Below are positions 63,606 through 63,703 of a DNA stretch of 64,000 nucleotides, in pieces. The stretch's first letter is position 1. Each line of letters begins with the position of its first letter. The DNA lies in the NCBI RefSeq assembly GCF_054482595.1, contig NZ_CM137008.1; one strand, written 5' to 3'. The notes beneath the pieces were generated by a model. The model was not told the origin of the DNA. It ran no database searches and was given only the letters and a program-made list of their open reading frames with translations. Position numbers and translations under genes: made by a program.

Positions 63606-63703
63606 GCCGGATGCGGCGCGAACGCCTTATCCAGCCTACAAAATTGTGCAAAATCAATGGATTGCACAGGTAGCGTAGGCCTGATAATCGTAGCGCATCA
63701 GGC
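63606..63703. repeat. REP elements in inverted orientation (BIME-like) between gcd and cueO
   Basis: GCCGGATGCGGCGCGAACGCCTTATCCAGCCTAC and an inverted partner GTAGGCCTGATAATCGTAGCGCATCAGGC match the enterobacterial REP consensus. Confidence 0.6.

Follow-up and report, generated by a model that had tools for sequence, protein, structure and literature searches.

A single-copy BIME-1 in the convergent gcd–cueO spacer of Escherichia coli: type, extent and alleles

Genomic setting

The window analyzed here is a stretch of 64,000 nucleotides of E. coli; can, hpt and gcd, followed by the 3′ part of cueO, occupy its last 4 kb. The coding sequence of gcd (quinoprotein glucose dehydrogenase) lies on the + strand at 61177–63567, with its stop codon at 63565–63567 and its start at 61177 placed from the length of K-12 gcd, 2391 nt. 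The 3′ end of cueO (multicopper oxidase) lies on the − strand at 63769–64000, where the gene leaves the window; its stop codon occupies 63769–63771 and its C-terminus reads ...MLGFTV. Both names follow RefSeq. The two genes converge on a spacer of 201 bp (63568–63768) between their stop codons, and the placement of the feature in a convergent gcd–cueO spacer in the preliminary description is borne out by the list of open reading frames, the RefSeq annotation and the match to K-12. For a 401-nt query around the element, identity is 100% with E. coli XH990 and 99% with derivatives of K-12. The cueO–gcd spacer of K-12 MG1655 (138634–138834) is likewise 201 bp long, and its alignment to the window contains three substitutions within the spacer; the annotation of NC_000913.3, as read, contains no repeat_region feature at this locus.

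REPs are imperfect palindromes with a mismatch in the stem and the tetranucleotides GTAG and CTAC at the foot (PMC3333891). In E. coli they are of types y, z1 and z2, which combine into two kinds of BIME: BIME-1 consists of y and z1 joined by a long and well conserved L linker, often with an IHF site, and is found as single copies; in BIME-2, y and z2 form tandem arrays whose linkers are short (PMC3333891). A length of 140 bp has been reported for BIME-1 (PMC1187871).

Structure of the element

Two REP units lie in the spacer. A Y-type REP occupies 63606–63639 on the + strand with 2/34 mismatches to the Y consensus (32/34 identical), and a short Z form, inverted with respect to it, occupies 63675–63703 on the − strand with 1/29 mismatches to the Z1 consensus (28/29 identical). 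When the window was shuffled with preservation of dinucleotides, 0/100 shuffles matched the Y consensus and 0/100 the short-Z consensus, so that both matches are far beyond chance. The consensus strings, of 34 nt for Y and 29 nt for short Z, agree with the three E. coli REP sequences quoted by Durrant et al. (PMC11208160) except at one base of the Y loop, which reads GTGAAC in the search pattern versus GTAAAC in that paper. The Y REP of the window also matches the Y REPs that flank rayT in K-12.

The arms of the two units pair with each other, 63627–63639 with 63675–63687 and 63605–63615 with 63694–63704. The conserved tetranucleotides of the REP foot are present as CTAC at 63636–63639 and GTAG at 63675–63678, and the stems are interrupted in the folds, as in REP palindromes generally. 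The element is extragenic, lying between two stop codons, and it is dispersed in high copy number, with at least 27–55 matching places per genome in blastn searches. Two inverted REP-like units had been described at 63606–63703, and this observation was confirmed by the consensus search, the shuffles and the pairing of the arms. The element is the only member of the REP family found in the 64-kb window. The REP tail has two further, weak matches in the window (876–889 and 55171–55184), which were rejected as chance, no REP being found around them.

The REPs flanking rayT in K-12 are of types Y and Z2 (PMC2817692). The Z form found there, GCCTGATGCGACGCTGGCGCGTCTTATCATGCCTAC, is 36 nt long and has a longer stem than the Z REP of the window, which was assigned to Z1 because it is shorter than this Z2 form. 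The element therefore pairs a Y REP with an inverted Z1 REP, as in BIME-1.

The two REPs are separated by an L linker of 35 nt (63640–63674), which contains an internal palindrome, TGTGCAA/TTGCACA (63645–63651/63662–63668). The linker is conserved in the paralogs described below and thus across four loci. A pattern search found an exact match, AATCAATGGATTG, to the IHF core consensus WATCAANNNNTTR at 63652–63664 on the + strand. This pattern is short and not rare on its own, with six matches in the window versus 2.2 expected; the weight of the match derives from its position within the L linker of BIME-1, a reported carrier of IHF sites (PMC3333891; PMC2817692). The window copy has the perfect core, whereas the linker of the BIME-1 family consensus, AATTCAAT, is one base off. 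In the IHF ChIP study of Prieto et al. no discussion of REPs was found, and the paper of Kasho et al., sought for IHF ChIP evidence, mentions neither gcd nor cueO.

The repeated unit is wider than the two REPs. Its extent was determined by comparing 63568–63727 with 5426 complete E. coli genomes using blastn, where genomes without the ortholog yield their best paralog. The best paralogs cover query positions from 7–10 to 155–159 with 85–88% identity, and those at satP–mog (CFT073), sbp–pfkA and fepA–entD align from TCAGATTGCTGACAA to TTGTCATCAGTCT, corresponding to 63575–63726 of the window. Alignment with these other copies over the whole of 63575–63726 leaves the assignment to the family standing. 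Since the paralogs align over this range, both flanks are part of the repeated element: a left motif, TCAGATTGCTGACAACGTGCGCGTTGTTCAT (63575–63605), and a right motif, AGATTTGCGTTTGTCATCAGTTT (63704–63726), are each conserved in the paralogs and pair with one another, with an inverted repeat at 63581–63589/63714–63722. These flanks correspond to the motifs that Bachellier et al. reportedly named A and B. From the sequence comparison, the unit thus extends over approximately 63575–63726 rather than the 63606–63703 given previously, and it comprises left flank, Y, L, Z1 and right flank in a long imperfect palindrome of about 152 bp, as defined by the paralog alignment and the consensus fold.

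The window contains one such unit. It has the parts, order and size (∼140–150 bp) of BIME-1, with an IHF consensus in L, and, like BIME-1, it occurs as one copy, outside genes where transcription units have their 3′ ends, and in some isolates but not in others. It is 85–88% identical over its full length to the copies at satP–mog, sbp–pfkA and fepA–entD, and its differences are minor: an A at 63633 weakens the Y stem (CCAGCC versus CCGGCC), and a T is found at 63688 in the Z1 loop region. Alternating REPs, with a Y REP among them, are shared with BIME-2, the tandem Y/Z2 element that binds gyrase; however, the window copy has Z1 and not the longer-stemmed Z2, a long L linker of 35 nt and not a short S linker, and one unit and not a tandem series. 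We consider it highly probable that a single complete BIME-1 of E. coli, present in one copy, accounts for the feature in the gcd–cueO spacer. BIME-1 has also been called RIP (Oppenheim et al., 1993) and RIB, the latter in Boccard & Prentki (1993), which PMC2817692 cites.

Folding and the conserved hairpin

The BIME-1 consensus fold has 49 pairs, of which almost all are invariant and two show compensatory changes. As RNA, individual REPs have folding energies of −10 to −19 kcal/mol, with the Y REP at −15.1 kcal/mol on the + strand and −18.7 kcal/mol on the − strand. For a 206-nt stretch comprising the gcd stop codon and the spacer, the folding energy is −81.8 kcal/mol (z = −5.5) on the + strand, that of gcd, and −77.8 kcal/mol (z = −6.8) on the − strand, that of cueO.

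Beyond the element, a GC-rich hairpin, ATGCCCGGA-gaga-TCCGGGCAT, has a perfect stem of 9 bp (63728–63736/63741–63749) and a GAGA loop. It had been noted as GCCCGGA-gaga-TCCGGGC at 63728–63748; the hairpin exists, with coordinates that were one or two bases off, the strict stretch being 63730–63747 and the full stem 63728–63749. It is kept in all of the alleles read, with or without the BIME, and one loop base varies across five alleles. The 50 nt at 63726–63775, which contain this hairpin and a smaller one, fold at −19.3 kcal/mol (z = −4.3). A scan of 63300–64000 for promoters and terminators returned no promoter-like site and 0 terminator-like sites. Neither strand has a canonical U-tract behind the stem: the tails read ATATTTCC (+ strand) and TTAAACTG (− strand), and the scan did not call the hairpin because ATATTTCC has only four T in eight. 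It is probably a common 3′-end or putative terminator hairpin of gcd and cueO, a role as terminator being plausible. The smaller hairpin, CCGaauaCGG followed by TCTTTTTAT (63754–63772, + strand), was found in the fold and overlaps the cueO stop codon; its stem is weak, with 3 bp, so that it is at most a candidate terminator.

Open reading frames and RNA family matches

Two short open reading frames of the ORF list cross the element. One of 71 amino acids (63505–63720, − strand) reads through the BIME and covers, on the opposite strand, the final 63 nt of gcd, and one of 45 amino acids lies at 63591–63728 on the + strand. Both frames are open, with ATG or GTG starts, as a genuine small protein gene would require. 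However, neither has a Pfam match, even at E ≤ 1, and no coding sequence is annotated under the element among the 40 RefSeq genomes listed. Furthermore, the frames cross a non-coding repeat family and are lost together with the element, so that they cannot exist in the roughly half of the strains that lack it. The probability that either frame is a gene is considered negligible; from the sequence they are best read as spurious by-products of the repeat, as had already been proposed for the frame at 63505–63720. In annotation practice neither should be called a gene; beyond such points of annotation the element is of little importance.

Two Rfam families match the element. ES036 (CssrF; RF02751) matches 63640–63682 on the + strand over all 43 model positions with 34.6 bits and E = 1.4 × 10−5, under its gathering threshold of 37.6, and naRNA4 (RF02564) matches 63600–63636 on the − strand with 32.1 bits, under its threshold of 59.5, where its first hairpin alone aligns. 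The 43-nt consensus of ES036 is essentially the BIME-1 linker with the start of Z1, GUAGGCCU, and the first hairpin of naRNA4, which is derived from REP325, is a Y REP. These scores would be expected if the linker were a small RNA of the ES036 or naRNA4 kind with its own function, and transcription of almost 80% of the REPs of E. coli has been reported (PMC4550694). However, both matches remain below threshold and reflect the sequence of the BIME-1 linker and the Y REP; nothing in them points to an independent transcript here. In addition, with no promoter-like site in 63300–64000, any transcript would most simply be the 3′ UTR of gcd. A separate small RNA is thus regarded as very unlikely, and we read the two matches as echoes of the repeat family and not as evidence of an sRNA gene. 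A literature search on ES036 returned only grant numbers. Near-threshold matches to these `sRNA' families are likely to be met with at other BIME-1 copies as well.

Alleles among E. coli strains

The element was found in 2739 of the 5426 complete E. coli genomes, a carrier being defined by coverage of at least 80% of the 401-nt query. Approximately 2310 of the 5426 match as far as the gcd stop only, which is the pattern of an allele with a 46-bp spacer, and approximately 309 have remnants or variants of another kind, among them a remnant allele of 77 bp and an insertion of IS621 in the Z1 REP. The 33 nt that precede the Y REP are carried by 3048 genomes.

Six states of the spacer were read. 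The 201-bp spacer of the window and K-12 contains one complete BIME-1, and the 195-bp spacer of GPEC1354 contains one BIME-1 with a shorter variant linker. In the 46-bp spacer of AREA_497, TAA-CCAT is followed directly by the hairpin. The 77-bp spacer of ATCC 25922 retains the 33 nt of spacer that precede the Y REP, among them most of the left flank, and the hairpin. In the 256-bp spacer of ECE170 (L041, 1499–1754) an extra partial left-flank motif and a second Y REP lie upstream of the normal Y–L–Z1, and in RM9245 the spacer is interrupted by IS621 within the Z1 REP. Variation between 46, 77, 195, 201 and 256 bp among strains is the textbook presence/absence polymorphism of BIME-1. Variation in presence and in copy number is published behavior of BIME-1 (PMC1187871), and the comparison of strains called for by the preliminary description revealed both kinds of polymorphism at gcd–cueO. 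Because about half of E. coli strains have no BIME-1 at this locus, the element is dispensable.

The 46-bp and 201-bp alleles differ by 155 bp: GACTTGC and the unit replace CCAT, with no target duplication, which does not correspond to a clean insertion of 152 bp. MITEs and other non-autonomous palindromic elements mobilized in trans, as in the REPtron model (PMC3333891; PMC2817692), resemble the element in being short, non-coding, palindromic and multi-copy and in the presence or absence of whole units, but the locus differs from them in having no target-site duplication and in a junction with the empty allele that is not clean.

The 77-bp allele (ATCC 25922; L003, 400–476) is the 195-bp allele (GPEC1354; L004, 401–595) minus 118 bp. 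The deletion runs between two 8-bp direct repeats, TTCATGCC, which bracket the palindrome; their counterparts in the window are at 63601–63608 and 63725–63732, the right-hand copy being TTAATGCC (7/8). Such a deletion bears the signature of slippage or of microhomology deletion across the palindrome, either of which could have been the mechanism.

In RM9245 the orthologous locus (L005, 1693–2990) has IS621, an element of the IS110 family with a bridge-RNA recombinase, inserted in the Z1 REP at ATCAGGC-CT-AC, with CT on both sides. The sequence ATCAGGCCTAC is a published natural target of IS621 (PMC11208160). It is intact in the Z1 REP of the window (63675–63685, − strand), which is consequently a potential landing site for IS621 by its sequence.

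Other Escherichia lineages and genera

Species-representative genomes were scanned with a degenerate 27-nt pattern of the gcd C-terminus. The scan yielded three Escherichia lineages other than E. coli and several other genera, about half of the matches being unrelated MAGs; E. albertii, E. fergusonii and Salmonella were not among them. It returned no locus at E. coli-level identity, although K-12 and the window match the gcd pattern exactly.

In the three Escherichia lineages gcd is 93.5–94.8% identical to that of the window. One of them (L012) has a single diverged BIME-1 at gcd–cueO and another (L025) has the 46-bp empty state. Since empty and occupied states both exist outside E. coli, the haplotypes are either old or have been moved between lineages by recombination. 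The third, Escherichia sp. MOD1-EC7003 (L017, 2667–3524), has 8.0 tandem Y–L–Z1 units of 107 bp (96% matches), followed by the usual right flank, the hairpin with one stem mismatch, and cueO. BIME-1 has been described as single-copy, whereas this array is an amplified, `atypical' array of BIME-1 parts.

The convergence of gcd and cueO is kept in other genera, in which the spacer is filled with other palindromic repeats. In Pseudocitrobacter, Yokenella and other Enterobacteriaceae (L008, L009, L020, L024, L031 and L032) it contains CCCTCTCCC...GGGAGAGGG elements, in Silvania, Lelliottia and Pluralibacter (L027–L030) a different GC-rich type of REP, and in Trabulsiella (L014 and L033) a plain hairpin with a T-run. 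The spacer thus appears to be a recurrent landing place for palindromic repeats.

A stronger reading is that the spacer is a long-lived hotspot where BIME-1 is still being remodeled, and not a fossil, and that the eightfold array reflects an amplification of BIME-1 in the manner of BIME-2, presumably by RayT. The states on which this reading draws are the empty, 118-bp deletion remnant, single-copy, 1.5-copy and IS621-interrupted spacers of E. coli and the eight tandem copies of the sister lineage. We regard it as quite unlikely; if it were true, the eightfold amplification of Y–L–Z1 would show BIME-1 to be capable of amplification in the way of BIME-2, despite its description as strictly single-copy.

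Discussion

The element at gcd–cueO is an ordinary one that was already known, as its first reading as an ordinary REP/BIME pair had stated; the refinements made here are its type, a single-copy BIME-1, its extent of 63575–63726 and the catalog of its alleles. What the sequences show is its identity, its place in the family, its copy number, its palindromic structure, its polymorphism among strains and its dispensability. By analogy with other members of the family, we infer that it may act in two ways, through bending by IHF and through stabilization of the gcd 3′ UTR. As DNA, IHF would bind and bend the L linker between two REPs capable of forming cruciforms. As RNA, the element would be transcribed within the gcd 3′ UTR, since it follows the gcd stop and precedes the conserved hairpin. 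Stable stem-loops in this 3′ UTR would slow 3′-to-5′ exonucleases, by which the gcd message could be stabilized. Transcripts of cueO would meet the hairpin first and would reach the element by read-through only.

Liang, Rudd and Deutscher reportedly found in 2015 that REPs within ∼15 nt of stop codons stall ribosomes. The distance of 38 nt from the gcd stop to the start of the Y REP exceeds these ∼15 nt, and REP-induced stalling at gcd is therefore unlikely.

The spread of REPs has been attributed to RayT/TnpA-REP acting on single-stranded REPs (PMC3333891). The arrival and variation of the gcd–cueO element could be accounted for if a non-autonomous element were handled by this tyrosine transposase, together with slippage and recombination by the host.

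Alternatively, the element might serve chiefly as an adaptive regulator of gcd specific to this locus, acting as a terminator or mRNA stabilizer under selection, and not merely be a resident repeat of its family. Its position in the gcd 3′ UTR ahead of a conserved hairpin and its strong folding are consistent with such a role, as are the orthologous copy kept in one sister lineage of Escherichia, where a single compensatory change is seen in the flank helix, and the palindromic repeats of this same spacer in other genera. However, about half of the 5426 genomes lack the element, approximately 2310 showing the pattern of the 46-bp allele with the hairpin alone; the 152-bp unit is found at unrelated loci as well; and the alleles with the 118-bp deletion and the IS621 insertion are tolerated. 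An adaptive regulator of gcd is considered unlikely. With its alleles the locus could be used as a convenient natural series for the effect of BIME-1 on a 3′ UTR, and also as a natural landing site of IS621.
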